A stretch of DNA of 64,000 nt from an uncultured bacterium (lineage in GTDB: Bacteria; Eisenbacteria; RBG-16-71-46; CAIMUX01; WJJG01). The notes below the pieces were generated by a model. It ran no database searches. It had not been told where the DNA came from and was given only the letters and a program-made list of their open reading frames with translations. Positions 21,762-60,385 of the stretch are shown here, in pieces (positions within the stretch are counted from its first letter, which is position 1; the number at the start of each line of letters is the position of its first letter). Location: the NCBI GenBank assembly GCA_964482205.1, contig CAYZWI010000003.1, forward strand, positions 83,126-147,125, read 5' to 3'. Position numbers and translations under genes: made by a program.

Positions 21762-21800
21762 CTGCTGGCTCTCTCCATCTCCCGGGTCACTCGTGGATCC

Positions 21801-25129: not shown

Positions 25130-25157
25130 AGCTCTTTCCTCCTTGCTTGCAGGACTG

Positions 25158-26561: not shown

Positions 26562-26591
26562 TCCGCAATTGACGTCCGCCTCGCCAGCCCT

Positions 26592-40125: not shown

Positions 40126-40180
40126 GCGATCCTCCGATTGCGCGACTTCCCGGAAGTCCTCGAAGGGCGGAGCCTGATCC

Positions 40181-40813
40181 CTACGCGAGCAGCGCCCTCA
40201 CGCGCTCGACCGCGTTCGCTCCATCGAAGGCGTAGTCATCCGCCCCGATCTTGCGCGCGTACTCCGCCGACACGGGCGCGCCGCCGATGATCGTGCGCAC
40301 TTGGCCCGTCAGGCCGCGCTCGCGGATGAGTGCCGTCACGCGCTCCATCGTCGGCATCGTCGTCGTCAGCAGCGCTGACATGCCGATCACGCGCGCGCCC
40401 GATTCCTGCGCGGCCGCGAGGAATCGTTCGGGCGCGACATCGTGACCGAGATCGATCACTTCGAACCCCGCCCCGCGCAGCATCACCGCCACCAGGTTCT
40501 TGCCGATGTCGTGGAGATCGCCCTGCACGGTGCCGAGCACGACCTTGCCGACCGTCGGAATCCCTTCCTTGACCAGCAACGGCTTCAACTCATCCATGCC
40601 CGCGTACATCGCCTTGGCCGCCATCAGCACATCGGGCAGGAAGATCTCGTGGACGCGAAACTTCTCGCCGATCACATTCATCCCGGCGATCAGGCCGCGG
40701 TCGAGGATCTCTTTCGGAGCGATTCCCTGGGTGATCGCTTCGCGCGTGAGCGCCTGCACCCGTTCGTCGTCGCCCCGCTGCAATTCCTCGGCAATGCGTT
40801 CCAGGATGTCCAT
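40181..40813 (-). CDS. Corrinoid (cobalamin)-binding protein, MtmC/MtbC/MetH-B12-module-like
   Basis: B12-binding cap helix bundle MDILERIAEELQRGDDERVQAL. The DxHxxG His-on motif is GDLHDIGKNLV, in a Rossmann-like B12 domain. The start Met is inside the listed 303-aa ORF. Confidence 0.8.
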   Translation of the reverse strand: MDILERIAEELQRGDDERVQALTREAITQGIAPKEILDRGLIAGMNVIGEKFRVHEIFLPDVLMAAKAMYAGMDELKPLLVKEGIPTVGKVVLGTVQGDLHDIGKNLVAVMLRGAGFEVIDLGHDVAPERFLAAAQESGARVIGMSALLTTTMPTMERVTALIRERGLTGQVRTIIGGAPVSAEYARKIGADDYAFDGANAVERVRALLA

Positions 40814-40827
40814 CAATCTTCCTTTCC

Positions 40828-41619
40828 TCAACCTGCGCTCTTGGCCGCTGCCTTGCGCCCGCGATCGACGCACTCGCGCGAACGGCACGACCCGCAGAAC
40901 GGAAACTCGGCCGCGAAGGAGTGGATTTCGGGCCTCCCGAGCACGATCGCGCCCGAAATCGACTTGAGCGGACTCATGAGACAACTCTCTCCGAGTCGAA
41001 TGCCGATCGCTTCGGGCCCCAATTCGGCGAAGAGCGCCCGCTGGCCGGTCACATCCCAGCCGCAATAGCCGGGACTGTATCGCATCGCGCACAAACGCCC
41101 CGCCGATTCATCGGCGCGCGATCCGTCGCGCTTCTCGCACGGTGCAAGAAACCGCGCTTCCCACCGCTCTTCCAGAGTTTCCGCCGCACGCTCGGCCGCT
41201 TCCGACGCGGCCGCATCGAGAACCGCAGCAAGGGCGAATTCGCGCGCTTGAAATAACTCTGCGATCTTCCGCTCGACCTCCGCCCCAATCGTGACGGCGA
41301 AGATCGCGAGCCGTTCGGCCTTCGGGAAGATGCCGGCTAAGGGGCCTTCCGGCGCATTCTTCCCTTCGCCCTGATAGATGAACGCGAACCGTTCGGGGCT
41401 CACATCCTTCCACACGCCCACCGGCTCTGCACACTCCCGTACAACATCGAGCGCGCGAGAGAGCAGTTCCGATGTCCGCGCGCCCTGGTGGGCACCCGAG
41501 TCCGCCTCCGCGGCTCCCGGCAACCCGAGCGCGCAGCGCACGCGCTCGACATCGGGCACGATCTCTTCCGCGGACATGCGCACGATCTCGCCCATCGCGA
41601 TTGGCCTCACGCTTCGCAT
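40828..41619 (-). CDS. Methionine-synthase activation (AdoMet-dependent reactivation) domain-like protein
   Basis: MRYSPGYCGWDVTGQRALFAELGPEAIGIRLGESCLMSPLKSISGAIV matches the Met_synt_B12 pattern (R.SPGY...LTES..M.P.aSvSG). The C-terminal segment is FPFCGSCRSRECVD. Confidence 0.6.
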   Translation of the reverse strand: MRSVRPIAMGEIVRMSAEEIVPDVERVRCALGLPGAAEADSGAHQGARTSELLSRALDVVRECAEPVGVWKDVSPERFAFIYQGEGKNAPEGPLAGIFPKAERLAIFAVTIGAEVERKIAELFQAREFALAAVLDAAASEAAERAAETLEERWEARFLAPCEKRDGSRADESAGRLCAMRYSPGYCGWDVTGQRALFAELGPEAIGIRLGESCLMSPLKSISGAIVLGRPEIHSFAAEFPFCGSCRSRECVDRGRKAAAKSAG

Positions 41620-41674
41620 CCGCTCTGCGGCATCGCGACTCCGCTTCGAATCCGTTCCGTGGCCGCGACTGCCC

Positions 41675-43141
41675 TCACGCTTCCAATCCGCTCTTGGGCA
41701 GCGCGTCCATCCCGAATTTGCGCGCCTCCTTTTGCATGAGCCGCGTGAGCTCGGTCTTCGCCTCCTTGGACAATCTCGAAGGCTGCGCCGCCGCCACCAA
41801 CCGCTCGACTTCGCGATGCGCGCGCTCTCCCAAAGTGAGGCCGCCCTCTTCCATCCAGCGGGCGCGATTGGCGCGATCGATCGCGGGGCCGGGGATGTAG
41901 TGCTCGTCGCGCAAGTGACGCCGCGTGTGCTTGGAGATGAGCAAGTGGCCTTCGCGCAGCAATTCCTCGAAGCGCTCCAGCGAAGGGAAATCCTCGCGTG
42001 GCGCGATGCCTTCCGCCAACCGGCCGGCGAGGCCGCAGATCTCGTTGTCGACCACGAGCTTTTCGAGACTCTGGCAGCTCTCGAAGTCGAGCATGCCCGG
42101 CCCCGAGACGCTGTTCACCCCCGAGAGCATCGCAAGCGTCGCGCCCATCGAAGTCTCGAGCCCCGCCTGCGCGTCGAGCTGCTTGGCGTCGCTCAGTCCG
42201 ATGTAGGCCTGCGTCGGCATCCCGAGATGCTTGCCGATCTCGCTGTAGGCGCAATCGATCATCTGCGTCTCGACCGCGCCCATCGGAGTCGTCTCGTAGC
42301 GCACATCGAAGATCGCGGGCGATCCGCCGTAGAGCACCGGAGCGCCCGGGCGGGCGAGCTGGGTGAGGACCACTCCGCTCAGCGTCTCGGCGGTGTGCTG
42401 AATGAGCGAGCCCACCAAGGTGACCGGCCCCATGAAGCCGGCCAGCGGCATCGAGACATATTCCACCGGCACGCCGTCGCGCGCGCAGTCGAGCAGGTTC
42501 TGCGAAGTCACTTCGCTCCACTTGAGCGGCGCGGTGGGACAGACGGAGAAGATCGTGAGCGGTTTCGCGCGCAGCTCCTCGGCCGATCCGCGCACCGCGA
42601 TCTGCAGGTCGCGCATGAGCTCGTACGAAGGAATCGTGAAGGCCCCGGTCACGACCGGCTTCTCGCCGTGCAGCAGGCTCAAGTACAGCCGGTAGCTGTC
42701 CTGGATGCCGGCCGGAACATCGGCCGCGATCATCGCCGTGCTCTGCGAAGCGATGTGCTTCAACCCCGCGACGAGCTTCGTGTAGCGCACATAATCGGCG
42801 GTTTCGGGCCGGCGCATCGCGCCCGAGGGATAGTCGAGGATGTGAATGGCCGCCGAGCCGGGAGTGAAATAGACACGGTCGTCGATGAAGTCGTGGGTCT
42901 CGTTTCCCAGAACATCGTAGAGCTTGAACGACCGGGGCACCCGTCGCAGCGCCTCGTCGATCATCGCCTGCGTCAAACGCACGCGGCCGTCGGCGTGGCC
43001 GACTTGCGCGCCGTTGTCGGCGAGCAGCCGGACGGCGCGATCGTTGTGGACCTCGAGGCCCAGCCGGCAGAGGAGATCCCGCCCTTCGGTCACGATGCGT
43101 TCCAGCAACGGGTCGTCGAGGAATCTGAGCCGTGGTCTCAC
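41675..43141 (-). CDS. MttB-superfamily methyltransferase (non-pyrrolysine trimethylamine-methyltransferase homolog; quaternary-amine:corrinoid methyltransferase-like)
   Basis: 488 aa. The N-terminus LDDPLLERIVTEGRDLLCRLGLEVHNDRAVRLLADNGAQV fits the MttB TIM-barrel family pattern. There is no in-frame stop, which is consistent with non-Pyl members. Confidence 0.7.
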   Translation of the reverse strand: MRPRLRFLDDPLLERIVTEGRDLLCRLGLEVHNDRAVRLLADNGAQVGHADGRVRLTQAMIDEALRRVPRSFKLYDVLGNETHDFIDDRVYFTPGSAAIHILDYPSGAMRRPETADYVRYTKLVAGLKHIASQSTAMIAADVPAGIQDSYRLYLSLLHGEKPVVTGAFTIPSYELMRDLQIAVRGSAEELRAKPLTIFSVCPTAPLKWSEVTSQNLLDCARDGVPVEYVSMPLAGFMGPVTLVGSLIQHTAETLSGVVLTQLARPGAPVLYGGSPAIFDVRYETTPMGAVETQMIDCAYSEIGKHLGMPTQAYIGLSDAKQLDAQAGLETSMGATLAMLSGVNSVSGPGMLDFESCQSLEKLVVDNEICGLAGRLAEGIAPREDFPSLERFEELLREGHLLISKHTRRHLRDEHYIPGPAIDRANRARWMEEGGLTLGERAHREVERLVAAAQPSRLSKEAKTELTRLMQKEARKFGMDALPKSGLEA

Positions 43142-47015: not shown

Positions 47016-50012
47016 CTATTTCGCCAGCACCACCCGGCGCGTGAACGCTTGCCCGCGCGCATCCAGGCGCACGAAGTAGATCCCGCTTCCGAGATCGTCT
47101 CCGCGATCGTCGCGGCCGTCCCAAGCCAGTTCGGTGACGCCCGCATCCACGCGGCCGCTCGCCAGCGTGCGCACGCGCCGGCCGGCGGCGTCGAACACCG
47201 CCACATCCACTTCCTCGCTCCCAGGCAGCGCGAGCGCGATGCGCGTCGAGCCGGCGAAGGGATTCGGTCCGCGGGTGAAGAGGGCGATGGCAAGATCGCC
47301 TTCGCGCGGACCGACTCCAGAGAAGGCGTCGCCGGTGTCGAAGGCGATGTCGTCGATCCAGAAGCCGGGGCCGTTCACTCCTTGGTCGGAGCCGAACAGC
47401 ACGCGGAAGGAAAGATGCGACGAAATGTACGGCGTGAGATCGAAGACCGTTCCCACCCAACCGCCGGTCGATCCCGACCATCCGTCGCGATAGTCCAATC
47501 CGCCCAACGTCGCCGAGCCGTATCCCGGCAGCGGAACGATCGGCACCCAAGCAGAAGTGCTCGCATCCCACACATCCACGGCCGCGCCGTCGTAGTCCGC
47601 TTCGGTCTCGCACCAGTAGTGAAAGCTGAGCTTCAACTCCTGCACGCCTGAGAAATCGTAGGAAGGGCTGGTCAAGTAGCCGCTCACATCGTCGTCGTAG
47701 TCGCCGTTCATGCCCACGCCCCAGCAACGCGCGCCGCTGAAGCCCCCGGTCGGCCCATCCGCTCCCACGGGCGTACCGCGCGACCAGATCGGATCGCCGG
47801 TGAATCCGTTCGCCCCGGATTCGAAATCCGCCGTCACCGCCGGCAACTGCAGGAAAATGCCGTAGTCGAAGCGCGCGGGACGCTCGACTGCGACGCTGGC
47901 GAATTCCGCGCCGTGGCCGGGCCGGCCGTCGAAGAGAAACGCGTAGGTGTGTCCCATCGGAAAGCCGTCGATCGCCCAATCGCCCTGCAGATCGGTCGAG
48001 GTCGCACCGATGGGAACGCCTTGCGGAGCGACGCGTACGCCGGGCAGAGGCGTGACGCCGTCGTCGCTGATCACGCTCCCGCCGATTTCCACCGTCGGGC
48101 GCAGCGCGAGGGCGGCGTCCTGCGTCGTCGTCTGCCCGCCCGCGATCTCGATCGGCAAGCTCATCTCTTCGTACAAGAACGAATCGAATTCGAGGGTGTA
48201 GCTGTCCGCGCGCAGGGGAATGGCGTAGTCGCCATTGGAGGCCGTGACGGCGTACGCTCCCGTCTCGGGAATGCGCACATCGATTCCCGCGAGCGGCTGC
48301 CCCGTTCCTTGCGCCGTCACCGTGCCGGCGACTCTGCCGATGCCCGACTGCGCTTCCGCCCAGGCCGCGGTCAAGTGCGGCCGCGGTCCGATGTGGGCCG
48401 TTCCCGTTTGCGGTGTGCCGGTCTCAACCAAGATCTCGCGCGCCAGATGCGCGTCCAGCGGAATGCCGAAAGCGGCTTTGACCATGCCCTGCAGCGAAGC
48501 CACCGATCCGGCGACGATCGGAGTCGCGCTGGAAGTGCCGGAAAAGGTGTCGGTGTACCATTCCGTTTCGTCGCCGTCTTGCAGATTGCCGTATCCGCAA
48601 GTCACGACATTGTATCCCCATCCGTGCAGATCCACGCGCGCGCCGTAGTTCGTGAAGCCCGCCGGCTCGAGGCTCGAGCCGTCGCTCGCTCCGCAGAGAA
48701 TCGCGCCCGAATCGCGCGCCTCGCGGTCGAACAGGCTTCCGTACACCGGATCGTCATAGTTCTGCGAACCGTTGCCCGCCGCTTCGCAGCAGATCCTTCC
48801 ATTGGCCGTGGCGATCTGGATCGCTTCGAAATTGTCCAGCCAGAATTCCATGCAGACATACCCGAACTGCCCTTCGCCGGTCGCATTGGGACCGGGCGCG
48901 TGCAGCTCGATCACGAAGATGTCGCCGGGGGCGAGCTGCGCCGAAGCGGTGTTGATCGCGTCGGCCACCGAAAGCTCGGCGATCGACACGCCACCGATTT
49001 GCGCGAGATTCGCGATGCCGCTCACGCCGTACGAATTGCTCGTGCCTCGAATCTCGCCCATGACCGCCGTGCCGTGGTTGCGCCAGCTCGCATCCGTCAT
49101 CTCGCCGCCCGCCGTGAAGAAGGGCGTCACGAGGTCTTCGTGGTCCCACAGCCAAGCCCCTTCGATGTCGATCAACTTCACCGTCTGACCGCGTCCGCCC
49201 GCGATCGTCCACACGCCTTCCGCGTCGACGCCGAGGGGCGCGGGATCGAGATAGCCCTGCTGATCGACGAAACTGGGAGTGGGCAGCAACGCGCCCGCCG
49301 GGATGGCGGCCTCGCGGCCAAGCGTCCGCACGCGCGCATCCAGCGAAGGGGCCTGCACGATCGCGTGCGCGCGCATTTCCTCTGCGGCCGCATGAGGATC
49401 GTACCGGCCGGTGAAGGCATCGAAGCCGAGCGCCGCGGGAACGGCGACCGGCTCGAGAAAGGCCGCTTCCACAGCCGGATCGGCCGAGAGCTCGGCGACC
49501 ATGTCGAGGAGCTCCGCGCGCGAGAGCGAACGCGAAGGAACGATCTGCGCGTAACGATTCAGATCGGGAAGCGCGCGCCCCGAGCGACGCTCCGCTTCTT
49601 GCCGCTCGGCGTCGAGATCGTCCGCCGAACGCGAGAAGTGACGCTGCAGGCGCACATCGCCGTGCGCGGCCCGCAAGCGGTCGAGCAATCCACGCACGCG
49701 CTCCAGTTGGGGCGCCGCGGCTTCCGGACCCTCCTCCTTCATGCGCACGCCCGTCGATGCGGCGAACTTGACGACGATCCGTCCCGAAGGAGCGGGCGTT
49801 TGGAGCGCAAGGTGGCGATCGATGGAGAGCTTCGAGGCGCGGCCCGGATTCGGGCTGTGCGGACGAGCGGTCGGGCTGTTCGAACGGGCGGCGCGCGATT
49901 CGAGCGCAGGAGTAAGCTCAGGGGAATGGGCCAGGGCCGACAGCATCGGCACGCAGGCGAGAAGCGCGATGAGGGGCAGGAAGAACGCCACGATGCGGCG
50001 CAAGTCCTTCAT
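47016..50012 (-). CDS. Secreted S8 subtilisin-family peptidase with carboxypeptidase-regulatory-like domains and a T9SS/FlgD-Ig-like C-terminal sorting domain
   Basis: Signal peptide MKDLRRIVAFFLPLIALLACVPMLSALA. Subtilase His (NHGTAVMG) and Ser (GTSSATPIVAG) motifs. CarboxypepD_reg-like segments are present. The C-terminal 85 aa (PNPFAGSTRIALALP...GIYFVRLDARGQAFTRRVVLAK) match the Por-secretion-tail/FlgD-Ig pattern. Confidence 0.8.
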   Translation of the reverse strand: MKDLRRIVAFFLPLIALLACVPMLSALAHSPELTPALESRAARSNSPTARPHSPNPGRASKLSIDRHLALQTPAPSGRIVVKFAASTGVRMKEEGPEAAAPQLERVRGLLDRLRAAHGDVRLQRHFSRSADDLDAERQEAERRSGRALPDLNRYAQIVPSRSLSRAELLDMVAELSADPAVEAAFLEPVAVPAALGFDAFTGRYDPHAAAEEMRAHAIVQAPSLDARVRTLGREAAIPAGALLPTPSFVDQQGYLDPAPLGVDAEGVWTIAGGRGQTVKLIDIEGAWLWDHEDLVTPFFTAGGEMTDASWRNHGTAVMGEIRGTSNSYGVSGIANLAQIGGVSIAELSVADAINTASAQLAPGDIFVIELHAPGPNATGEGQFGYVCMEFWLDNFEAIQIATANGRICCEAAGNGSQNYDDPVYGSLFDREARDSGAILCGASDGSSLEPAGFTNYGARVDLHGWGYNVVTCGYGNLQDGDETEWYTDTFSGTSSATPIVAGSVASLQGMVKAAFGIPLDAHLAREILVETGTPQTGTAHIGPRPHLTAAWAEAQSGIGRVAGTVTAQGTGQPLAGIDVRIPETGAYAVTASNGDYAIPLRADSYTLEFDSFLYEEMSLPIEIAGGQTTTQDAALALRPTVEIGGSVISDDGVTPLPGVRVAPQGVPIGATSTDLQGDWAIDGFPMGHTYAFLFDGRPGHGAEFASVAVERPARFDYGIFLQLPAVTADFESGANGFTGDPIWSRGTPVGADGPTGGFSGARCWGVGMNGDYDDDVSGYLTSPSYDFSGVQELKLSFHYWCETEADYDGAAVDVWDASTSAWVPIVPLPGYGSATLGGLDYRDGWSGSTGGWVGTVFDLTPYISSHLSFRVLFGSDQGVNGPGFWIDDIAFDTGDAFSGVGPREGDLAIALFTRGPNPFAGSTRIALALPGSEEVDVAVFDAAGRRVRTLASGRVDAGVTELAWDGRDDRGDDLGSGIYFVRLDARGQAFTRRVVLAK

Positions 50013-50489
50013 GGAGAATCCTCCGGAGTTGTCGGACCTCGAGAAGCGAAGCAACGAGGGGGCATACACCAGCCCGGCGACCTCGATTCCATTGTAGCAG
50101 AAGCGGGTGACTGCCCGCGCCGGCTCCGTCGCCCCTGTGTTCGGCCGGTCACAGAATGCCCGGAAATCGGGCCGAAAGCTGCCATTTCCAGGCGCCGGCG
50201 AGCCTCGGTCCCAACTCACGCCCCCATCGTGAAAGATCCTTCCGCTCAGCCAATCCAAGTGCAACGGCAGGAGCGGCGCAGGAGCCGGGTATTCCGGCTC
50301 CGCGATCGAGAAGAATTCTTCTTGTCGCCGATGTTCCCCTCTCCCGCTCCTTGCGATAGAATCTCCCGTTCGTGACATCCATGTTCACTCGAAATCGGGG
50401 GGACCTCCATGCATTGTAGATTCTCCGGCCGCTGCTCGCGCTTCTCGTCCTGGTTTCGTGCGTCTCGATGGTCGCGATCGAGCCTGGCG

Positions 50490-52286
50490 ATGTCCGCCCT
50501 CATCCTGTTGACGGGAATCGTTCTGGTCGCTTTCCTGCATCCCATGGGGAACGCGGGCGCCGCGTCGACCCGCCCGAATCCCTTGCAGGAGCGCGCCGAT
50601 CGCTTTCTCGCCCTCGTGAACAGCGGCTATCAGGCTCTGCGCACCCTGGAGCACGAAACCACCTGGACCGCGGAGACGGATGTGACTCCGGAGCATGACG
50701 CCGCCGCCGCCGCCGCGAGCAAGGCCTTGGCCGCCTTCAATGGAAATCCCGAGATCATCACCGAAGCGCGCGAGCTCCTGGCGCACGAACGCGAGCTCGA
50801 CCCGGTGACCGTGCGCCAGTTGCGCCAGGCGCTCCTCAATGCGGCCGAGGGGCCGATGACCAACCCCGAACTCGTCGCTGCCCGCATCGATGCCGAGACG
50901 GCGCAGACTTCCACCTTGAACAGTTTTCCCTTCGTGCTTCAAGGACAGCCGGTTTCCACGAATCAAATCGACGATCGCTTGATCGAGTCCACCGACCTGG
51001 CCGAGCGGCTCGCCGTTTGGGAGGCGTCGAAGATGTCGGGCCCCGCGCTCAAGCCGGGTCTCGTGAAGCTGCAGCCGCTGCGCAACGGAGTCGCCCGCGA
51101 ACTGGGCTATCACGATTACCTCGCGCTTCAGGCGGCCCGTCACGATCTCACGGTCGCGGAGTTGCTCGCGCTCGAGGAAGAGTTCCTCGAGGTGCTCCAG
51201 CCGCTCTACCTGCAGATCCACACCTGGGCCAAACACGAATTGGCGCGCCGCTACGGGCAGCCGGCGCCCGAGAAGATCCCCGCCCACTGGATCACCAATC
51301 GATGGGCGCAGGAATGGAACGGCATGCTGCCGACGCCTGGAATGAGCAAGGCCTTCGAGAATCGTTCGCCCGAATGGGTCGTGCAAACGGCCGAGCGCTT
51401 CTATACGAGCATGGGGCTTCCGTCGCTGCCCGCGTCGTTTTGGGAGAAGTCGGACCTCTATCCGGTGCCGCCCGGCGACGCGCGCAAGAAGAATACGCAC
51501 GCCTCCTGCTGGAGCATCGATCTCGGCCTGGACATCCGGTCGTTGATGAGCGTGGAGGCTGACGAGTACTGGTTGGCGACCGCGCATCACGAGCTCGGTC
51601 ACGCCTACTACGACATGGCCTATTCGAAGCCGCCGATTCCCTTCCTGCTTCGCACCGGCGCGAGCCCGGCGATGCACGAGGCATTCGCGGGTCTGGGCGA
51701 GATGGGGGGCAGGCAGGTTCCCTATTTGAAATCGCTCGGGCTTCTGGCGGAGGGCCCCGACGACGAAATCGCCTTCCTGCTTCGCGATGCGCTCAACAAC
51801 ATCCCCTTCATGTTCTTCGCCTCGGGGACGATGACCCACTGGGAAGCCGATCTCTATGCGAACGAGTTGCCGCCCGATCAGTGGAACGCGCGCTGGTGGG
51901 AATATGTCGAGCGCTTCCAAGGCGTCGAGCCGCCCGCGCCGCGCGGCGAGGAATTCTGCGACGCGGCCACCAAGACGCACATCAACACGAATCCCGGCTA
52001 CTATTTCTCCTACACGATCGCGACAGTGATGAGCTACCAGCTGCACGATCACATCGCCCGCAAGGTTCTCCACGAAGATCCGCGCCATTGCATGTACGCG
52101 GGACGAACGGAAGTGGGCGAGTTCCTGCTGAGCATGCAACGCTGGGGCGCGACGCGCGACTGGCGCGCGCTGCTGCGCGAGGCGACGGGCGAGGATCTCT
52201 CCACACGCGCGATGCTCGAATACTACCAGCCGCTCATGACCTGGCTGGAGGAGCAGAACAAGGGACGGAAGATCGGGTGGGATTGA
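50490..52286 (+). CDS. M2-family peptidyl-dipeptidase (angiotensin-converting-enzyme homolog)
   Basis: Signal anchor MSALILLTGIVLVAFL. ACE-like N-terminus ADRFLALVNSGYQALRTLEHETTWTAETDVT. Zinc motif HHELGHAYYDMAY with downstream HEAFAGLGE. Confidence 0.75.
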   Translation: MSALILLTGIVLVAFLHPMGNAGAASTRPNPLQERADRFLALVNSGYQALRTLEHETTWTAETDVTPEHDAAAAAASKALAAFNGNPEIITEARELLAHERELDPVTVRQLRQALLNAAEGPMTNPELVAARIDAETAQTSTLNSFPFVLQGQPVSTNQIDDRLIESTDLAERLAVWEASKMSGPALKPGLVKLQPLRNGVARELGYHDYLALQAARHDLTVAELLALEEEFLEVLQPLYLQIHTWAKHELARRYGQPAPEKIPAHWITNRWAQEWNGMLPTPGMSKAFENRSPEWVVQTAERFYTSMGLPSLPASFWEKSDLYPVPPGDARKKNTHASCWSIDLGLDIRSLMSVEADEYWLATAHHELGHAYYDMAYSKPPIPFLLRTGASPAMHEAFAGLGEMGGRQVPYLKSLGLLAEGPDDEIAFLLRDALNNIPFMFFASGTMTHWEADLYANELPPDQWNARWWEYVERFQGVEPPAPRGEEFCDAATKTHINTNPGYYFSYTIATVMSYQLHDHIARKVLHEDPRHCMYAGRTEVGEFLLSMQRWGATRDWRALLREATGEDLSTRAMLEYYQPLMTWLEEQNKGRKIGWD

Positions 52287-52425: not shown

Positions 52426-52454
52426 TGGATTTTCTCTCAAAAGCCCGGTAGAAT
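52426..52454 (+). promoter_or_regulatory. Putative sigma70-like promoter for secreted paralog A
   Basis: TGGATT-N17-TAGAAT. It follows the only AT-rich island in the window (52322-52372) and precedes the conserved approximately 45-bp leader shared with paralog B. Confidence 0.25.
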
Positions 52455-52527
52455 CTTGATGTGCGGCCCAATCAAGGGCCCGTGCTGCAGCCGGTCCAAG
52501 CACCTTTAGCTAGTGGAGGGAAGAGAC

Positions 52528-53202
52528 ATGAAGAAACTGCTACTGCTGACTGCGATGGCCCTGCTCGCGGCCTCCCCCGCGTTTGCGGAGACCGCGTCCA
52601 AGGACGGCACGCCCATCGAGGTGAATCCGGGAACACCGAATGAGGCGAGCCTGACCCGCGCGCTCTTCGAGTACAACACCGGTGGAGCCATTGATGTCGT
52701 TCCGACCATGGGCGGTTCCGCGACGGGTTGGTCCGAGTGGGCGATCGCCTTCGTTGCGAATGGGACAGGCGACGATCTGCTCCTCACGGAGATCTCCTGG
52801 CCGTGCGGCGGCCCTGCCAGCGGTCCGTATGGATGGATCATCTGGACTGGAACGGGCGGAGTCCTTCCGGGTGCCGCTTCCACGGCGGACTACTTCGGAC
52901 CTTACACGCCGGACAATCCCGACGGCACGACCTATCCGCCTCTCGATTACACCTATGTGGACATTTCCGCTGCGGCCGTGCCCTTCCTGGCCGGTGACAT
53001 GATCTGCTTCGGCATGGACAACACCGGCATCATGGGCCAGGTCAGCTACAATGGCGTGGAGACCTGGGGCTGGTATAGCGGGATGTGGGACAGTGATGCC
53101 CCCTATAGCCGTACCACAGTCCTTCAGATCAAGGCTGATCTCGAAGGCCCGGTGCCTGCGGATGTCAACAGCTGGGGCCAGGTGAAGGAGCTCTTCCAGT
53201 AG
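52528..53202 (+). CDS. Small secreted Thr/Gly/Pro-rich protein, paralog A (unknown function)
   Basis: Good RBS (GGAGGGAAGAGAC-ATG). Signal peptide MKKLLLLTAMALLAASPAFA. It is about 75% identical to the product of 57314-57985. Confidence 0.7.
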   Translation: MKKLLLLTAMALLAASPAFAETASKDGTPIEVNPGTPNEASLTRALFEYNTGGAIDVVPTMGGSATGWSEWAIAFVANGTGDDLLLTEISWPCGGPASGPYGWIIWTGTGGVLPGAASTADYFGPYTPDNPDGTTYPPLDYTYVDISAAAVPFLAGDMICFGMDNTGIMGQVSYNGVETWGWYSGMWDSDAPYSRTTVLQIKADLEGPVPADVNSWGQVKELFQ

Positions 53203-53227
53203 TCGATCCTCACAGGGTCTGAGATTC

Positions 53228-53265
53228 GGGATGCCCGGCTTGCGGGCATCCCGTTCTCTTTGTGG
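53228..53265 (+). terminator. Rho-independent terminator downstream of paralog A
   Basis: Perfect hairpin GGGATGCCCG-gcttg-CGGGCATCCC followed by a T-rich tract (gttctctttgt). Confidence 0.6.
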
Positions 53266-53432
53266 CTCATGGTCGCAGCTCTTGCATCCGCTTCTCGTTG
53301 GCCTCGAGCCGCCGCGGCCCGGCACTCTGAACGCCGCAAGCATCGTCTGCATCCTGCGCTTCTCCTTGGCCGGAATCGCGGCGGCAACAAATGCATTCCG
53401 GTTCCTTCCACCACGATCCATAATTCTCGGAC

Positions 53433-55406
53433 ATGCCGACCCATCCCACAGCCGCCCGGACCCTGGTCCGCTCCGAGGGCCGCCTGACGAACTCTCCCTC
53501 GACGCGTGCGAGCGCTCTGTTGGCTGCCTCCTGCACGATCGCTGCCGCCGGCCTGTATGCCTGCACGGCCGCGCGGACCATCTTCGTCGGGGACAGCGCC
53601 GAACTGGCCGGTGCCGCCGCGTGCTTCGGCGTTCCACATCCTCCTGGATATCCGCTCTACACGCTGACGACCGGCCTCTGGACGCATTTCTTCCCCACTT
53701 CTTTGCGCGACTTCGCCGCGAACCTCGCTTCGGGATTGCACGCGGCTCTTGCGGCCGGCCTTGTCGCGCTGCTGCTCGCCCGCGCGGCCTTCTCGACGAG
53801 CGCGGTCCTGGCCGCCGCCGCGATCCTGGCCTTGGGACGATCCACCTGGGCCCAGGCCGTTGCCGCGGAGGTGTACGCGTTCGACATCCTTCTGCTGGCT
53901 GTCTCCATCGTCGCCATCGTGCATGCTCGGAAGAGCGACCGCGCGACCGACGAGATGATGGCGGGGCTGGCCCTCGGCCTCTGGCTCGGACATCGCCCGC
54001 TGAATTTCCTCTATCTTCCCGCGATCTGGCTCCTCGCTCAGGGATTGGCCGCGTCGAGCACGCACCATGCCGCACGCGGCTTCGAGAACGGCCGCAGTCT
54101 TCGCCATATCTGGCGGCGCACCCGCTCGTACTTGCTGGGTGTGTTCGGATCCTCGCTCGTGTACTTGTACTTGCCGATCGCGAGCCGCGCGAACCCGCCG
54201 ATCGACATCGGCGATCCGGAATCGTTCGGTCGCTTTCTGGAGGTCGTTCGGGGGGCGCCGTATGTCCGCCATGTGGACGCGTTCCCTCTCTCCGCCGCAG
54301 CCACGCGGATGATCCATCATGTATGTGCGCTCCCGTTCGAAGCGGGCTTCGGCCTGATCCTCGCCGTCGTCGGACTCCTTTCGCTTCGATCGTCGGACAC
54401 CGGCAGACGGCGTCTCTCGCAGGGCGCTGCGTTGCTCTTGATCTTGAATCTGCTGCTCGTCTCGGCGTATCGAGTGCTCGATGTCGCGAGCTTCCGGCTG
54501 CCTGGCGCGCTTGCGATCGCGATCCTCGGCGCGCTCGGCGCCGAACGGCTGCTGGCCTTCCTCGGCCGAGCGCGGGCAACAGATCGATCGATGGCGAAGT
54601 CCGCATGGAATCCGGCAGGCGCGGCCATCGTTCTGCTGTGCGCGCTCAGCTTGCCGCTCAATTTCCGCACCAATGATCTGCACCGGGACGACGCGGCGCG
54701 CGTGTACGGCGAACAACTCCTGCGCGGCGTCCCGCACTCGGCGCTGCTTCTCACCCAGGGCGACACGGTCACGCATGTGCTTTGGTATCTGCAGGGCATC
54801 GAAGGCCAACGCACCGATCTTCTGCTGGTTTCCACGGGGCATGCGTCCGAATGGTACTTCGATCAACTCGCTCGCCGTTCCGCGGTCGGTTTTCCGCGCC
54901 TCCCTTCCGGGCAGCATCCCGAAGACGCCTACCGGGCGCTTCTCGAAAGCCAGGGAGCGACGCGGCCGGTCGCGTTCACCTTCAGCCCGGCCCTCTTTGC
55001 GGAACGGACGATGGGGCCTTGGTGGCAGGACCGCACGGTCGTGCCTTCCGGATTGGCGCTCACCGCGCCGAGAAGCGCGTCGCTGGACCGCGACTCCCTG
55101 GCCGCCGCGAATGTGACCTTGTGGAATGATCTTCGTTCATCGCTGCCGGGCGTGCGTGAAGCCGCCGACCTGGAGACGCAGGCCATCGGTTTGGCGTATG
55201 CTGTCGCCATGCAGCGGACCGCCGAGTTTCTCGAGCGCAGAGGAAGAGGCGCAGAGGCGCGCGATCTCTATCGATCGATCCTCGCCTTGCGGCCGGACCG
55301 TTGGGCGAGCGCCATCGCGCGCGCGAATGCGCGCATCGGGCGGCCGTTCGAAGCGCTCGATCTGGAACGTCGCGCCCGCCTCGCAGGGCAGTCGTCAAAT
55401 CCTTAG
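53433..55406 (+). CDS. DUF2723-family (TMEM260-like, GT-C fold) polytopic membrane protein with C-terminal TPR-like domain
   Basis: DUF2723 N-terminal signature LYACTAARTIFVGDSAELAGAAACFGVPHPPGYPLYTL. More than 10 TM helices. The C-terminal region is soluble and helical. Confidence 0.7.
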   Translation: MPTHPTAARTLVRSEGRLTNSPSTRASALLAASCTIAAAGLYACTAARTIFVGDSAELAGAAACFGVPHPPGYPLYTLTTGLWTHFFPTSLRDFAANLASGLHAALAAGLVALLLARAAFSTSAVLAAAAILALGRSTWAQAVAAEVYAFDILLLAVSIVAIVHARKSDRATDEMMAGLALGLWLGHRPLNFLYLPAIWLLAQGLAASSTHHAARGFENGRSLRHIWRRTRSYLLGVFGSSLVYLYLPIASRANPPIDIGDPESFGRFLEVVRGAPYVRHVDAFPLSAAATRMIHHVCALPFEAGFGLILAVVGLLSLRSSDTGRRRLSQGAALLLILNLLLVSAYRVLDVASFRLPGALAIAILGALGAERLLAFLGRARATDRSMAKSAWNPAGAAIVLLCALSLPLNFRTNDLHRDDAARVYGEQLLRGVPHSALLLTQGDTVTHVLWYLQGIEGQRTDLLLVSTGHASEWYFDQLARRSAVGFPRLPSGQHPEDAYRALLESQGATRPVAFTFSPALFAERTMGPWWQDRTVVPSGLALTAPRSASLDRDSLAAANVTLWNDLRSSLPGVREAADLETQAIGLAYAVAMQRTAEFLERRGRGAEARDLYRSILALRPDRWASAIARANARIGRPFEALDLERRARLAGQSSNP

Positions 55407-55424
55407 CCGACAAGGCGGGACGCG

Positions 55425-57212
55425 ATGCGAACTCGGCTCGATCCGCGGGGAAGGAGAATGGGTTTGAGGATCGTCTTCTTTTCGACCATGGGATTGCTGG
55501 CCGTTCTCCTCTTCTTCCCGCCGTCAGGGGCGGCCGAGGATGCGGCCGTCTCGCTGCGCGGGTGGAGCATGACCGCCGCGGAGATCGCCAGCGAATGCGA
55601 TCGCGTGCGCGGGGCAGGCGCGTTCGATTCCCTGGACGTCGCCGCGCGGGTGGCGTTCGCTCGCACGCTCGCCGACCGCGAGATCCTCTTCCGCCTCGCC
55701 AAGAGCGAACAAGTGGCCATCGCAGGCCGCGCGCAGCGGGGATATCGAGCCGAGCACGAGAAACTGCTCATCCGCGAATTGCTGCGCGATCTTCGCGATC
55801 GCTTCCATCCCGATTCCCTGCAGGAGGCGCGCGAGTTTCCGCGCCTGCTTCGCGCCGCTCGCACGGAGCAGTTTCTCGTGATCGACAACGGCCGGGCCGT
55901 GCAAGCGGAGAACGCCTTGCGCGAAGGGCGCGACTTCGCCGAGGCGGCCAAGGAATTCTGCGATGTCCATTCCCCCGGCGGGGCGCCGGCGGCGCCGGTT
56001 CAATCGAAGGTCGTGCGCATCGACGACCGCCAGGCTCCCGTGCCGCTCTTGAAGGAATGTCTGCTGCGCGATCTGCAGCCGGGATCCGTGGGCGAGCCGG
56101 TGCGCATGCCCGAAGGCACGGTGTTCGTTCGCGTCCTCGGGTACGAGCCGCTGTCCGAGGCTTCCGATTCCTCGTGGCTCTCTCAGGCGCGACGCGCCTT
56201 CACGAATCTCCTCTGGATCGACCGCTCGCGCGAGTGGTCGGACAGCTTGAAGCAGGCGGCCGGACTGGCCACCCATCCGGAAACCTATGCGCTCATCGTG
56301 GAGCGCTTCGCTGCGATGTGGGATTCCCTGCAAGCGGCTCGCGCCGAAGGATTCCCATTCGACATCCTGTCTGTCCGCCCGCCCGCGTGGCGATTCTCTC
56401 GCGACGAGCTCGCCCTGCCCGTGTACGAGCTCCGGGGACGGGCTTTTGATGTCGCCGATTATCTCGCGGGTCTCGAGGAGATCGATGTCGAGTACTGGCC
56501 GGGAATGGTCTCGGGAACCAAGGCTCTTGAGCACTTCGAGGCGCGCGTGGAGCGCATTCTACTCGCCGAAGAAGCCAACCGCCGTGGAATCCCTTCCAGC
56601 CTTCCATTTCGTGAAGCGTTGCAGATGCTCGTAGACAAGTGGCTGCTCGAAGCCTATTTTGGATACGTGACAGCGTCGATTCCCGATCCGAGCCCCGATT
56701 CCCTCGCGGCCGCGTATCAACGCTACCGCTCGTTGCTCGCCTTCCCGGAAGCCGTCTCCTTCAGTTTGCTCAGCTATCCTCCTTCGGAAGAAGCGCGCGC
56801 GCGTGAAATCCTGCAACGATTGCGCGCGGCATCGCCCGACTCGCTGGCGGCCATCGGCCCGCGCGAAGCGCAGCAGCGTGGGGCCTGGTTCGTCGCGCGC
56901 ACGCAGCTGCGCAATGTCGCGCTCGGGCCCTTCCGTCCGGAGTTGGCCGACTACTGGCCCGTGGCGCTCGAGCTCGAAGAGAAGCAGTACTCGGACGTCT
57001 TCCGCACCTCCGCGGGAGGCTGGGCCTTCGTGCGGGTGGAGGAGCGCCGCCCTGCGCGCGACCGCACGATGGCGGAGGCGCGGCCCTACTTGCTCGTGAA
57101 GACCAAAGGGGTCGAGCAGAACCGCGCCATCGAGCGCATCCTCGAGCGCGAGCGCCTGAACATGGAGTTGCTCATTCGGCAGGAACCGCTGCGCGATTGG
57201 AGGAGGAACTGA
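55425..57212 (+). CDS. Periplasmic PpiC/parvulin-type peptidyl-prolyl isomerase chaperone (SurA/PpiD-like)
   Basis: Signal peptide MRTRLDPRGRRMGLRIVFFSTMGLLAVLLFF. Chaperone-like helical regions flank a parvulin domain (ENALREGRDFAEAAKEFCDVHSPGGAPAAPVQ...PGSVGEPVRMPEGTVFVRVLGYEP). The start follows the DUF2723 gene by 18 nt. Confidence 0.6.
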   Translation: MRTRLDPRGRRMGLRIVFFSTMGLLAVLLFFPPSGAAEDAAVSLRGWSMTAAEIASECDRVRGAGAFDSLDVAARVAFARTLADREILFRLAKSEQVAIAGRAQRGYRAEHEKLLIRELLRDLRDRFHPDSLQEAREFPRLLRAARTEQFLVIDNGRAVQAENALREGRDFAEAAKEFCDVHSPGGAPAAPVQSKVVRIDDRQAPVPLLKECLLRDLQPGSVGEPVRMPEGTVFVRVLGYEPLSEASDSSWLSQARRAFTNLLWIDRSREWSDSLKQAAGLATHPETYALIVERFAAMWDSLQAARAEGFPFDILSVRPPAWRFSRDELALPVYELRGRAFDVADYLAGLEEIDVEYWPGMVSGTKALEHFEARVERILLAEEANRRGIPSSLPFREALQMLVDKWLLEAYFGYVTASIPDPSPDSLAAAYQRYRSLLAFPEAVSFSLLSYPPSEEARAREILQRLRAASPDSLAAIGPREAQQRGAWFVARTQLRNVALGPFRPELADYWPVALELEEKQYSDVFRTSAGGWAFVRVEERRPARDRTMAEARPYLLVKTKGVEQNRAIERILERERLNMELLIRQEPLRDWRRN

Positions 57213-57313
57213 TCCGCCGCGTCACGAAGCGAAGCGGCGAGCAGACGGGAAGATGAATCCATGGCCCGGGCCGCAGCCGGTCCAAGTGCTCTCAGCTAGT
57301 GGAGGAAAGAGAC

Positions 57314-57985
57314 ATGAGAAAACTGCTGCTGCTGATTGTGATCGCCCTGCTGGCGGCCTCCCCCGCATTCGCGGACACCGCGTCCAGGGACGGCACGCCT
57401 GTCGTGGTGAATCCGGGAACGCCGAATGTGGCGAGCCCGACCCGCGCGTTCTTCGAGTACAACACCGGTGGAGCCATCGATTACCCTCCGAGCACGGGCG
57501 GTTCCGCGACGGGTTGGTCCGAGTGGGCAATCGCCTTCGTTGCGAATTCCACCTACAACGACCTGGGCCTCACGGAGATCTCCTGGCCGTGCAGCGGTCC
57601 TGCCAGCGGTCCGTATGGATGGATCGTTTGGACCGGCACAGGGGAAACCCTTCCGGGTCCCGCTGAGACGGCGGAGTACTTCGGACCTTACACGCCTGAC
57701 GATCCCGACCCCTCGACCTTCCCGCCTGATGACTACACCTATGTAGACATCTCCGCATCGAACATTCTCTTCCCGGCCGGTGACACGATCTGCTTCGGCA
57801 TGGACAACACCGGCATGATGGGCATGACCAGCTACAATGGCGTGGAGACCTACGGTTGGTATGGCGGGGTTTGGGATAGCGACAGCGCGTATGGCCGCAC
57901 CACGATCCTTCAGATCAAGGCTGATCTCCTGCTGGTGCCTGCGGATGTCAACAGCTGGGGCCAGGTGAAGGAGCTCTTCCAGTAG
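57314..57985 (+). CDS. Small secreted Thr/Gly/Pro-rich protein, paralog B
   Basis: RBS GGAGGAAAGAGAC-ATG. Signal peptide MRKLLLLIVIALLAASPAFA. It is a paralog of 52528-53202 with the same conserved leader and terminator. Confidence 0.7.
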   Translation: MRKLLLLIVIALLAASPAFADTASRDGTPVVVNPGTPNVASPTRAFFEYNTGGAIDYPPSTGGSATGWSEWAIAFVANSTYNDLGLTEISWPCSGPASGPYGWIVWTGTGETLPGPAETAEYFGPYTPDDPDPSTFPPDDYTYVDISASNILFPAGDTICFGMDNTGMMGMTSYNGVETYGWYGGVWDSDSAYGRTTILQIKADLLLVPADVNSWGQVKELFQ

Positions 57986-58010
57986 TCGATTCTTGCAGGG
58001 TCCAACATTC

Positions 58011-58035
58011 GGGATGCCCGGCTTGCGGGCATCCC
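58011..58035. terminator. Hairpin terminator (identical stem to 53228-53252), placed between convergent genes
   Basis: GGGATGCCCG-gcttg-CGGGCATCCC. It lies downstream of paralog B (+) and of the DUF853 gene (-). Confidence 0.5.
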
Positions 58036-58050
58036 GAGCGCCTGCTCCTA

Positions 58051-59589
58051 TCACCGGCGCGTTCCTCCGAGGATTCCTCCCAGCATGCCGCGCAGAATCT
58101 GGCGCCCGATCTGGCTGCCGACCGTGCGCGCCGCCTGCTTGGCCATCGTCTCCACCATGCCCTGGCGGCGCTTCGTTCCCCACAACATGTCGCCCACCGG
58201 TCCGCGGCTCTCGGACTTGCGCTCGGCCGGCTCGCTCTCGCGAGGCGCGCGCCGACGCGAGGAACCGCCGCGCGACCGTCCTTCGCCTTCACCTTGCGGC
58301 GCATTCCCGCCCGCCTGTTCGGCTCTCGCGCTCAGGATCTCGTAGGCCGACTCGCGATTCACGGGCGCGTCGTACTTGCTCCCCACCGGGCTTCGTGAGC
58401 GCACCGCCGCGCGTTCTTCGGGCGTGATGGCGCCCATGCGGCAGCGCGGCGGGCAAATCAGCGTGCGCTCGACCGGCATGGGAATGCCCTTCTCCTGAAG
58501 CAACGAAACGAGCGCCTCTCCCACCTGAAGCTGCGAGATCGTCTGGGCCACATCGACGCCAGGGTTGGGGACGAAGGTCTCGGCCGCGGTGCGCACGGCC
58601 TTCTGGTCGCGCGGCGTGTACGCGCGCAGCGCATGTTGGATGCGATTGCCGAGCTGTCCGAGGATTTCGTCGGGCACATCGTCGGGGAATTGCGAGCAGA
58701 AGTACACGCCGACGCCTTTCGAACGAATGATCCGCACCACCTGCTCGACTTTCTGGCGCAGCGCGGGCGGCGCATCGTCGAAGAGCAGGTGCGCTTCATC
58801 GAACAGGAAGACGAGCTTGGGCTTTTCCAGATCGCCCACTTCGGGCAGGTTCTCGAAGAACTCCGAGAGCAGCCAGAGGAGCAGGCTCGAATACATGCGC
58901 GGCTTCAGGATCAAACGATCAGCCGCGAGAATGCTGATCACCCCCCGGCCGTTCAAATCCGTGCGCATGAGATCGCCGAGCTCGAGGGCCGGCTCGCCGA
59001 AGAGCTCGGTCCCGCCCTCACGCTCGAGGGTGAGCAGCCCGCGCTGAATGGCGGCGATCGAGGGCGCGCTCACGAGGCCGTACTCGCTCGAGATCTCCTT
59101 GCGATGGTCCGCAACATAGGTGAGCAGCGCGCGCAAGTCGTCGAGGTCGAGAAGCAGCAGCCCTTGCTCGTCGGCCAGCTTGAAGGCGACCTCCAGGGTT
59201 CCCGCCTGCACATCGTTCAACTCGAGAATACGCGCGAGCAGGCTGGGGCCGATCTCGCTCACCGTCGTGCGCACCGGATGGCCCGCGTCTCCGAACACAT
59301 CCCAGAAGAGCACGGGGCTGCCCTCGGGCGCGTAGTCCGTGATCCCGATTTGCGCCGCGCGGGCCTGGATCTTTTCATTGGGGATCGCAGGCATCGCGAG
59401 CCCGGCCATGTCGCCTTTCACATCGGCGAGAAACACGGGAACGCCCAAACGCGAAAACCCTTCGGCGAGCACCATCAGCGAGACGCTCTTCCCGGTGCCC
59501 GTCGCTCCGGCGACGAGACCGTGACGATTTCCATACGGAGCGAGCAGGCGAATCTGCTGCTCTCCTTTTCCGACCAGAATCGTGTTCAC
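58051..59589 (-). CDS. DUF853-family P-loop NTPase (HerA/YjgR-like)
   Basis: A GTG start is preceded by the RBS GGAGGAAGAGG. The N-terminus reads MNTILVGKGEQQIRLLAPYGNRHGLVAGATGTGKS, which is the Walker A motif. The Walker B motif is LVFLFDEAH. The listed 752-aa ORF has an Arg-rich antisense extension. Confidence 0.7.
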   Translation of the reverse strand: MNTILVGKGEQQIRLLAPYGNRHGLVAGATGTGKSVSLMVLAEGFSRLGVPVFLADVKGDMAGLAMPAIPNEKIQARAAQIGITDYAPEGSPVLFWDVFGDAGHPVRTTVSEIGPSLLARILELNDVQAGTLEVAFKLADEQGLLLLDLDDLRALLTYVADHRKEISSEYGLVSAPSIAAIQRGLLTLEREGGTELFGEPALELGDLMRTDLNGRGVISILAADRLILKPRMYSSLLLWLLSEFFENLPEVGDLEKPKLVFLFDEAHLLFDDAPPALRQKVEQVVRIIRSKGVGVYFCSQFPDDVPDEILGQLGNRIQHALRAYTPRDQKAVRTAAETFVPNPGVDVAQTISQLQVGEALVSLLQEKGIPMPVERTLICPPRCRMGAITPEERAAVRSRSPVGSKYDAPVNRESAYEILSARAEQAGGNAPQGEGEGRSRGGSSRRRAPRESEPAERKSESRGPVGDMLWGTKRRQGMVETMAKQAARTVGSQIGRQILRGMLGGILGGTRR

Positions 59590-60152
59590 CCTCTTCCTCC
59601 CAGCAGACGAAGACCTCGTCGCAAGGCGAAAGCGCCGAGCAGGACGAGCGCCAGCAACGCCACCAGCGGAATCACGATCGCGAGAATCGAAACGACGATC
59701 GCCGATCCCGACTCCGCGGACGCGAAGGCGGGGTTCCCCGCGCCGCCCGTCATCATCGTCGATCCGAGACGCGTCATGCCGGTGAGACCCTGGAACAGGC
59801 CGGCGACTCCCCCTCCCGCGAGCACGGCGAGCGCCCAGCGGACGAAGGGACTCACCTGATCCATCGAAGCGGCCATGACGATCACGCCGGCCGCAACGGC
59901 GAGCGGCGCGCCGGCCACATCGAGCAGGTGATCGAGCCAGGGCACATGATAGGAAACGATCTCGACCACGGTGGCCGCGGCAAGCGCGATCAATGCGCCC
60001 CACGATCCGAGCCAGGCGAATCCCGGCGAAAGCGCGAAGTGGCCGAAGTGCGCGGCGGCGCTCAAGGCCAGCAAGGGGACGAAGATGCGCAACCCGCAGG
60101 CCGCGGCGAGCGCGATGCCGACGAGGAGGCTGAGAAGGATCTCCGGAATCAT
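59586..60152 (-). CDS. DUF4126-family small polytopic membrane protein
   Basis: 188 aa with 5-6 TM helices. Family-like pattern GLRIFVPLLALSAAAHFGHFAL...VPWLDHLLDVAGAP. Its stop overlaps the DUF853 start by 2 nt. Confidence 0.55.
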   Translation of the reverse strand: MIPEILLSLLVGIALAAACGLRIFVPLLALSAAAHFGHFALSPGFAWLGSWGALIALAAATVVEIVSYHVPWLDHLLDVAGAPLAVAAGVIVMAASMDQVSPFVRWALAVLAGGGVAGLFQGLTGMTRLGSTMMTGGAGNPAFASAESGSAIVVSILAIVIPLVALLALVLLGAFALRRGLRLLGGRG

Positions 60153-60385
60153 CGCAGAACCTTTCTAAGACGAACCGACCTTGTGCGACCGGATGGAAGC
60201 GCCCTGCTCCCCTGCCGCCGGAAACGGGAAGCGCCCTCGGCCGACTGCCGATCGTCACATCTTCAGCGGGATTGTAGGGCAATGCCGCCCGGCAGGCCAT
60301 AGCCAGCACCTGGGGGTTTCAAAAAGCCTTCAGACCGGGTATGGTCGGGCTTCGTTAGGGCATATCACAGGAAAGGAGCAAGACG

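Follow-up and report, generated by a model that had tools for sequence, protein, structure and literature searches.

A duplicated gene unit for a predicted secreted, lectin-like protein in a parvulin-containing gene cluster of an Eisenbacteria subclade

Why should a small secreted-protein gene occur twice within 6 kb, once on either side of a membrane glycosyltransferase gene and a parvulin gene? The question is raised by a 64,000-nucleotide stretch of DNA from an uncultured Eisenbacteria bacterium (contig CAYZWI010000003.1 of assembly GCA_964482205.1; G+C 64.6%), the whole of which is here called the window. An initial annotation had read this locus as a compact, self-contained protein O-glycosylation module, in which the two small proteins (paralogs A and B) are the substrates of the glycosyltransferase, a DUF2723 protein resembling human TMEM260. 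Here, we propose, with a probability of roughly 0.6, that the duplicated unit of the locus encodes a secreted, lectin-like protein with a C-terminal tag, and that this unit belongs to a subclade-specific gene cluster with a parvulin chaperone.

The observation that started the question is real. The open reading frames (ORFs) of paralog A (52528-53202, 224 amino acids) and paralog B (57314-57985, 223 amino acids), both on the + strand, are confirmed, and Pfam identifies the two genes between them as a DUF2723 protein (PF11028, E=3e-18) and a parvulin (PF13145, E=2e-16). The protein products of the locus genes are 100% identical to those of a contig of a metagenome-assembled genome (MAG) at NCBI (GCA_016294925.1, our locus L011), and the nearest named homologue of the small protein comes from 'Candidatus Eisenbacteria'.

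A duplicated, probable transcription unit

Each of the two copies consists of a 58-nt leader, a coding sequence (CDS) and an identical hairpin, and together they form sharply bounded direct duplicates (52470-53253 and 57256-58036). Pairwise alignment gives 78% protein identity over 224 amino acids (BLASTP, E=2e-119) and about 85% identity of the CDS nucleotides (100 differences in 669 nt); the initial annotation had given about 75%. Homology begins 58 nt before each ATG (at 52470 and 57256, with a leader identity of 83%) and ends 53 nt after each stop codon (at 53253 and 58036, with a 3' flank identity of 89%). Directly outside these limits identity is 23-27%, i.e. random (23% upstream of the leaders). 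Leader copy A (52470-52527, +), which carries, as does copy B, a Shine-Dalgarno sequence, GGAGG, 8 nt before the ATG, thus marks the start of the unit; leader copy B (57256-57313, +) starts 44 nt past the parvulin stop codon and lacks the sequence that lies upstream of copy A. Between A and B identity is 78%, and no other family member exceeds 69% to them; each is the other's closest relative, and the duplication is lineage-specific. A weak tblastn match elsewhere in the window (19475-19846, E=0.03), at first sight a third paralog, falls within the ORF of a Ser/Thr kinase and was dismissed as noise.

The two coding sequences have diverged unevenly. Synonymous divergence (dS) is 0.25 and non-synonymous divergence (dN) 0.14, a high dN/dS of about 0.57, with dS varying as a mosaic between 0.03 and 0.75 across blocks of 25 codons; the final 24 codons (dS 0.07) and the hairpin are nearly identical between the copies. 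This pattern suggests fast protein divergence together with either a tract of gene conversion at the 3' end or strong constraint there.

The leader had been described as a conserved element of about 45 bp, and the two copies do share it, over 58 nt; what did not hold up is any special conservation, as 83% identity is the neutral expectation at a dS of 0.25 and duplication explains the likeness. The leader pattern occurs exactly twice in the window, compared with no occurrence in shuffled sequences. A role as an RNA element is ruled out: the leader has no match in Rfam at E<=1, its predicted fold (copy A) is no better than that of shuffles (z=-0.2), and the leaders of orthologues differ from it beyond the ribosome-binding site. 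Two orthologous loci (L001 and L007) have 5' hairpins of their own, which align with no pairing in the window leaders. The leader is simply part of the duplicated unit.

Downstream of both genes lies the same perfect hairpin, GGGATGCCCG-GCTTG-CGGGCATCCC, at 53228-53252 and 58011-58035, each 25 nt past the stop codon, as the initial annotation had noted. This 25-nt sequence has two copies in the window and none in shuffles, and the segments that bear it fold at about -36 kcal/mol (z about -4.5). Hairpin A (53227-53253 with its full 11-bp, G+C-rich stem and 5-nt loop, +) is called terminator-like by a terminator scan, having 11 base pairs, 9 of them GC, followed by the tail TTCTCTTTGT. Hairpin B (58010-58036, +), situated between paralog B and a convergent HerA-like gene, has the same stem-loop without the T-run and is not called a terminator by the scan. 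In orthologous loci the small gene is likewise set apart from its downstream neighbour, by a gap of about 110-240 nt in the five lineages with aligned or measured flanks, and in the four with aligned downstream flanks this gap contains a strong hairpin of lineage-specific sequence. From these positions and folds we infer that the hairpins act as terminators. With a strong terminator-like hairpin separating it from the next gene, the small gene would be its own transcription unit.

We therefore read the cassettes as the product of a tandem-type duplication, specific to this lineage, that copied a small transcription unit in full (leader, CDS, stem-loop terminator). The bracketing of the central genes by two cassettes, which had been taken as a feature of the module, reflects this duplication and is not conserved elsewhere.

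The small proteins and their C-terminal tag

What do the duplicated genes encode? Read from the sequence, each small protein begins with a Sec-type signal peptide (…ASPAFA|E; in paralog A about residues 1-20, cleaved at AFA|E), so that both are probably secreted, as had been predicted. A disordered N-terminal stretch containing the conserved motif TASKDGTP follows, and then a conserved core of about 160 residues (about 45-205 in paralog A). The description of the small proteins as Thr/Gly/Pro-rich is numerically true of the mature proteins: relative to the average of the window proteome, Thr is about 2x and Gly and Pro about 1.5x, with Trp at 3x, Tyr at 2x and Arg at 0.1x. This composition fits a globular extracellular beta-protein or binding module and not a mucin-like low-complexity tract.

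Neither paralog has a sequence match in Pfam, NCBIfam or the PDB, and neither matches a curated carbohydrate-binding module (CBM) or lectin profile. They belong to a small family. A search of 5.8 billion proteins returned 28 clusters (90% identity), a profile run against 1.84 billion representative proteins matched 64 of these representatives, and a genome scan found 43 loci with a family gene. The hosts are MAGs labelled Eisenbacteria, Krumholzibacteriota, Fermentibacteria/Aegiribacteria/Sabulitectum, Fibrobacteraceae and Acidobacteriota (Holophagae, Thermoanaerobaculia), with a few others. In some members the domain is fused to a Kelch propeller with a type IX secretion system (T9SS) tail (P0040), to beta-helix proteins (P0073 and a 1078-aa ORF in L022) or to an alpha/beta-hydrolase (P0061).

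An AlphaFold2 (AF2) model built with the family alignment (pLDDT 82, pTM 0.71) has an all-beta core. Its top Foldseek match is Cwp84 (E=7e-4), followed by influenza haemagglutinin receptor-binding domains, and its structural matches overall comprise the Cwp84 lectin-like domain, PHR, CBM35/32/6 and the haemagglutinin receptor-binding domain, with no IPT or plexin-type domain among them. The core is therefore predicted to be a lectin/CBM-like beta jelly-roll, and the expectation that structure prediction would yield IPT/Ig-like beta-sandwiches was not borne out. The likeness to lectin and CBM jelly-rolls (Cwp84, PDB 4ci7; PHR; CBM35/32/6; discoidin) is an analogy at the level of fold, with no sequence-level family membership, and any binding function is for this reason likewise an analogy.

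The second distinguishing feature of the small proteins is their extreme C-terminus. Both paralogs end in …SWGQVKELFQ and a stop codon, with the tag WGQVKELFQ encoded at 53173-53199 in A and 57956-57982 in B (both +), strictly C-terminal. Across family members from Eisenbacteria, Fermentibacteria and 'Fibrobacteraceae' MAGs this end has the form [ST]WGx[IV]Kx[LI][FY] followed by 0-1 residue, and in Krumholzibacteriota members it is relaxed to ISAVKALF. A scan of about 0.7 Mb of retrieved DNA for the motif in ORFs of 60 amino acids or more gave 50 occurrences, 46 of them at 0-2 residues from the stop codon, and a reversed-sequence control contains none. Eight of the 46 C-terminal tags are on unrelated proteins that have N-terminal, signal-like hydrophobic segments; the unrelated bearers include a beta-helix protein, a PPC-domain protein, a Calx-beta protein and large Cys-rich proteins. 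Outside the window, sites with the C-terminal motif lie in L001 (957-1661), L007 (178-900, - strand) and L008 (3782-5050, - strand), and at the ORF ends at L022 11728, L029 1078 (-), L047 12629 (-) and 14824 (-), and L052 4862 (-).

Other family members have different tails at the very position of the tag. Some carry a T9SS type A or FlgD_ig tail (P0023 scores 32.2 bits against the TIGR04183 cut-off of 23), Holophagae members end in a 'PIPTLS + transmembrane (TM) helix + RRR' tail that is IPTL-CTERM-like and falls below the cut-off of that model, and some end in VELQSLSVE. The paralogs themselves contain no T9SS type A C-terminal beta-sandwich sorting domain (TIGR04183, PF18962 or FlgD_ig; Pfam and NCBIfam), and the tag matches no model in either collection. 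A 41-aa tag profile searched against the 5.8-billion-protein database gave only 9 candidates and was uninformative. Given its position and its exchange for other tails, the tag may be a candidate C-terminal sorting or anchoring signal.

The tag resembles the T9SS type A C-terminal domain (CTD; TIGR04183) and IPTL-CTERM (TIGR04174) in standing at exactly the same position, strictly C-terminal, on unrelated signal-peptide proteins. It differs from them in being only about 10 residues long, with neither a TM helix and basic tail nor a beta-sandwich CTD, and in having no cognate machinery identified. A large S8 subtilase elsewhere in the window (47016-50378, - strand) has CarboxypepD_reg, MAM-like and FlgD_ig domains and a weak, below cut-off T9SS-tail match; the same genome thus has a long C-terminal domain of the FlgD_ig type beside the short tag.

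The gene cluster and its partners

The gene directly downstream of paralog A (53433-55406, +) encodes a GT-C membrane glycosyltransferase of 657 amino acids. It passes the PF11028 cut-off (66.6 bits against 24.2) and matches human TMEM260 (PDB 9rql) with E=7e-24 over residues 25-488; its motifs align with those of the human enzyme, GDSAE with GDSGE (the acidic motif of the first loop) and HPPGYPLYTL with HPPGYPLFTL. The identical L011 protein also carries a TMEM260_2 domain. Its identification as a TMEM260-like GT-C is thereby upheld. A metagenome search with this protein returned one irrelevant fragment.

The next gene (55425-57212, +) encodes a parvulin-type protein of 595 amino acids, with a PpiC-type Rotamase_2 domain at residues 422-554 (PF13145, 61.3 bits against a cut-off of 27). 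With its hydrophobic N-terminus and long region outside the peptidyl-prolyl isomerase (PPIase) domain it resembles the SurA/PpiD/PrsA-type chaperones; it differs from them in having no NCBIfam equivalog or PDB sequence match. Assignment to SurA or PpiD was rejected, there being no NCBIfam match at E<=1 and no PDB sequence match at E<=0.01. Since the gap between the DUF2723 and parvulin genes is 18 nt, the two are probably co-transcribed in the window, and where both are present in other lineages the spacing is operon-like (4-40 nt). The exception is L031, in which a toxin-antitoxin pair intervenes; in the equivalent loci L056/L057 a BrnT toxin gene and a 75-aa ORF, presumably the antitoxin (8198-8675, - strand), split the otherwise tight pair.

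Is this arrangement maintained? Among the closest Eisenbacteria lineages, a subclade of six, a parvulin gene lies near and downstream of the small gene in all six, and a DUF2723 gene stands between them in four. With identities to the window given for the small, DUF2723 and parvulin proteins in turn, the order small-DUF2723-parvulin is found in the window and L011 (100/100/100%, with the second small gene following), in L061 (63/58/62%, the parvulin gene being partial), in L031, equivalent to L056/57 (62/52/49%, with the BrnT toxin-antitoxin pair inserted), and in L007 (59/49/45%). In L001-L004 the small gene is followed by parvulin with no DUF2723 (66/none/61%). L066 has a 289-aa Cys-rich secreted protein between the small and parvulin genes (57-62/none/57%, the last over 42 aa). 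This protein (L066 2159-3028), which takes the place of DUF2723, itself closes with SSSWGRIKVMNLGRR, in which the tag is degenerate and extended.

The small and parvulin genes of the six lineages remain about 0.1-3.5 kb apart even with proteins diverged to 45-66% identity, and the genes outside this core differ in every lineage (M2 peptidase and HerA; Cache sensor kinase and ECF sigma factor; methyltransferase and sulfatase; BipA and FMN dehydrogenase), so that the core has been retained amid rearrangement. The order small-DUF2723-parvulin in four diverged lineages is real evidence for a maintained gene cluster. Beyond the subclade the association disappears: about 35 other family lineages (at most 53% identity), often with the family genes in tandem pairs, have neither DUF2723 nor parvulin within 8 kb on either side. 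DUF2723 orthologues at 44-47% identity lie beside ABC transporters, PhoU or a small FlgD_ig protein, with no family gene or parvulin gene next to them. Adjacency of the small gene and DUF2723 is thus present in four of the six subclade lineages, that of the window among them, and absent from the other two and from the roughly 35 outside. In L064 (8111-8542) and L065 (3277-3804), a DUF2723 orthologue 44% identical to that of the window directly precedes a small FlgD_ig (Ig-like) protein of 143-175 amino acids, and here, in a different lineage, another small secreted beta-sandwich protein is encoded beside a DUF2723 enzyme.

In the reading that we favour, the small gene would give rise to an abundant, Sec-exported protein of about 20 kDa with a lectin/CBM-like jelly-roll core, whose tag, [ST]WGx[IV]KxL[FY]x, most likely serves to sort or anchor it in the envelope or at the surface. 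The unit belongs to a small, unannotated family of putative extracellular modules of FCB-group candidate phyla and Acidobacteriota. Its constant partner in one Eisenbacteria subclade is a parvulin-type protein, presumably a periplasmic chaperone, and the TMEM260-like GT-C is a frequent but dispensable member, probably in an operon with the chaperone. The hairpin 3' of the small gene would allow expression far above that of the downstream maturation genes, giving a layout of a structural or binding protein followed by maturation genes at a lower level. Any action of the chaperone or the glycosyltransferase on the small proteins is putative. Several points weigh against this reading. The role of the tag is deduced from its position and from tail swapping, with no sorting enzyme identified and no entry in NCBIfam; the call of the fold comes from one AF2 model with 27 sequences, and the structural matches are at fold level, at 6-13% identity; no U-tract follows hairpin B; and all six syntenic lineages belong to one subclade, so that part of the conserved order may reflect shared ancestry and not selection.

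Might the small proteins rather be dedicated acceptors of the adjacent GT-C, O-glycosylated on Ser/Thr in the periplasm, with the parvulin as folding helper in a compact module? In favour of this stand the genuine kinship of the enzyme with TMEM260, including the alignment of the catalytic-loop motifs, a Thr content of the small proteins at twice the background, and the gene order small gene, GT-C, parvulin, found in four diverged lineages whose flanks are unrelated; for this order the pilA-tfpW-tfpX genes of Pseudomonas, with a substrate gene directly upstream of a GT-C gene and an accessory gene, offer a precedent. Two possible acceptor sites in the segment GGSATGWS, Thr66 and Ser69, are Ser/Thr mainly in the subclade; in other family members position 66 is mostly Asp (about 30% Ser/Thr) and position 69 is Gly or Ala. 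Both sites, however, track DUF2723 imperfectly (L066 has Thr66 and no DUF2723, L031 has DUF2723 and Ala69) and are for that reason leads only. The predicted jelly-roll is also not the IPT domain that TMEM260 targets, and a terminator-like hairpin separates the small gene from the GT-C gene. Family members in about 35 other lineages do without a neighbouring DUF2723, as do those of two subclade lineages (L001-L004 and L066), which keep the small gene and the parvulin, and the neighbours of DUF2723 orthologues at 44-47% identity are different genes. When most of the larger ORFs of the window were annotated with Pfam, no lipid-sugar donor synthase came to light, so the locus is not self-contained, contrary to what had been proposed. 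Finally, no acceptor of a bacterial DUF2723 enzyme is described in the literature searched, which makes protein acceptors for these enzymes an assumption. On balance, we regard dedicated acceptors as an unlikely explanation.

A neighbourhood devoid of functional meaning, in which unrelated envelope genes share inherited synteny within one subclade and one of them has been locally duplicated, would agree with the restriction of the linkage to that subclade, with the small gene being a separate transcription unit, and with the many unrelated contexts, often tandem pairs, in which family members are found elsewhere. It sits poorly with six lineages whose outer flanks are wholly different and which yet keep the small and parvulin genes close together despite the divergence of their proteins. 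Retention of genes amid rearrangement is usually a sign of selection, and we hold a meaningless neighbourhood to be decidedly unlikely. Were it true, the locus would be a recent duplication of a hypothetical secreted-protein gene. That the leader and hairpin are a mobile or REP-like repeated element, or a cassette spreading through the genome, is scarcely credible: the identity of the 25-nt hairpin at both sites and the sharp ends of the repeat would suit such an element, but the whole 64 kb contains just two copies, each where a paralog ends, the duplicated units are flanked neither by terminal inverted repeats or target-site duplications nor by a transposase, and the hairpins of orthologues differ in sequence at the same position, as terminators would. 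The near-identity extends, moreover, into the last 24 codons, which fits a gene-conversion tract or constraint. A bolder extension of our own reading would be a three-part envelope-protein maturation pathway, made up of the tag as a new sorting signal (in Eisenbacteria, Fermentibacteria, Krumholzibacteriota and relatives) that is interchangeable with T9SS and exosortase-type tails, a dedicated parvulin, and a TMEM260 homologue that O-glycosylates the protein where present; in its entirety we think it very improbable.

Several neighbouring genes of the window lie outside the conserved cluster. On the upstream side, paralog A is adjoined by a full-length bacterial M2 peptidase of the angiotensin-converting-enzyme family (50409-52286, +; PF01401, E=2e-91), which is outside the cluster in other lineages. 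On the far side of paralog B, the HerA-like ORF (58051-60309, -) spans 752 amino acids from a GTG start as called mechanically; in the identical locus L011 the called gene has 512 amino acids and is followed by a separate DUF4126 gene, so that the start in the window is probably over-extended. Further away are a set of signalling genes (18664-29959, -) comprising three Ser/Thr kinases (one RDD-fused), a PP2C phosphatase, a VWA-FHA protein and a TPR-SLT lytic transglycosylase, and a cluster of an MttB-family methyltransferase, a B12-binding corrinoid protein and a homocysteine S-methyltransferase (39223-43141, -) that looks like a quaternary-amine or methylamine demethylation set.

Known systems and significance

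Human TMEM260 is a protein O-mannosyltransferase that targets the IPT domains of plexins, cMET and RON (PMC10214176). The GT-C of the window matches it over about 465 residues, and an N-terminal GT-C module with GDS(A/G)E and HPPGYPL is common to both; it differs in being a bacterial enzyme known from its sequence, whose neighbouring small proteins are predicted jelly-rolls and not IPT domains. In the literature searched, bacterial DUF2723 members were mentioned only as 'distant homologs in bacteria'. For the structural-protein-then-maturation-genes logic, the nearest known parallel is pilA-tfpW-tfpX of group IV Pseudomonas aeruginosa, where a GT-C glycosylates the pilin encoded just upstream (bioRxiv 10.1101/2020.04.19.049825; PMC11841053). 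In both cases the gene for a small exported structural protein, abundant in the pilin system and putatively so here, precedes a GT-C membrane glycosyltransferase and an accessory protein. The window genes, however, have no homology to pilin or to TfpW/TfpX, and their linkage is restricted to a subclade and dispensable in two of its six lineages.

Taken by themselves, the components are nothing categorically new: a gene was recently duplicated, and the enzyme and the chaperone belong to known families. What is new is an unannotated family of extracellular modules, a clade-restricted three-gene cluster with a candidate acceptor for a bacterial TMEM260 homologue, and a short candidate tag at the C-terminus. 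In the literature searched, human TMEM260, a disease gene, is the only characterised member of DUF2723, which is a large family in bacteria. With candidate acceptors encoded beside the enzyme, the question of what bacterial DUF2723 enzymes modify becomes directly testable and, if the small proteins are substrates after all, they would be the first natural acceptor for one. Independently of glycosylation, the locus defines an unannotated extracellular module, predicted to be a jelly-roll, in poorly known candidate phyla. If the tag is a sorting signal, it would also aid the prediction of surface proteomes in uncultured bacteria of the FCB group.

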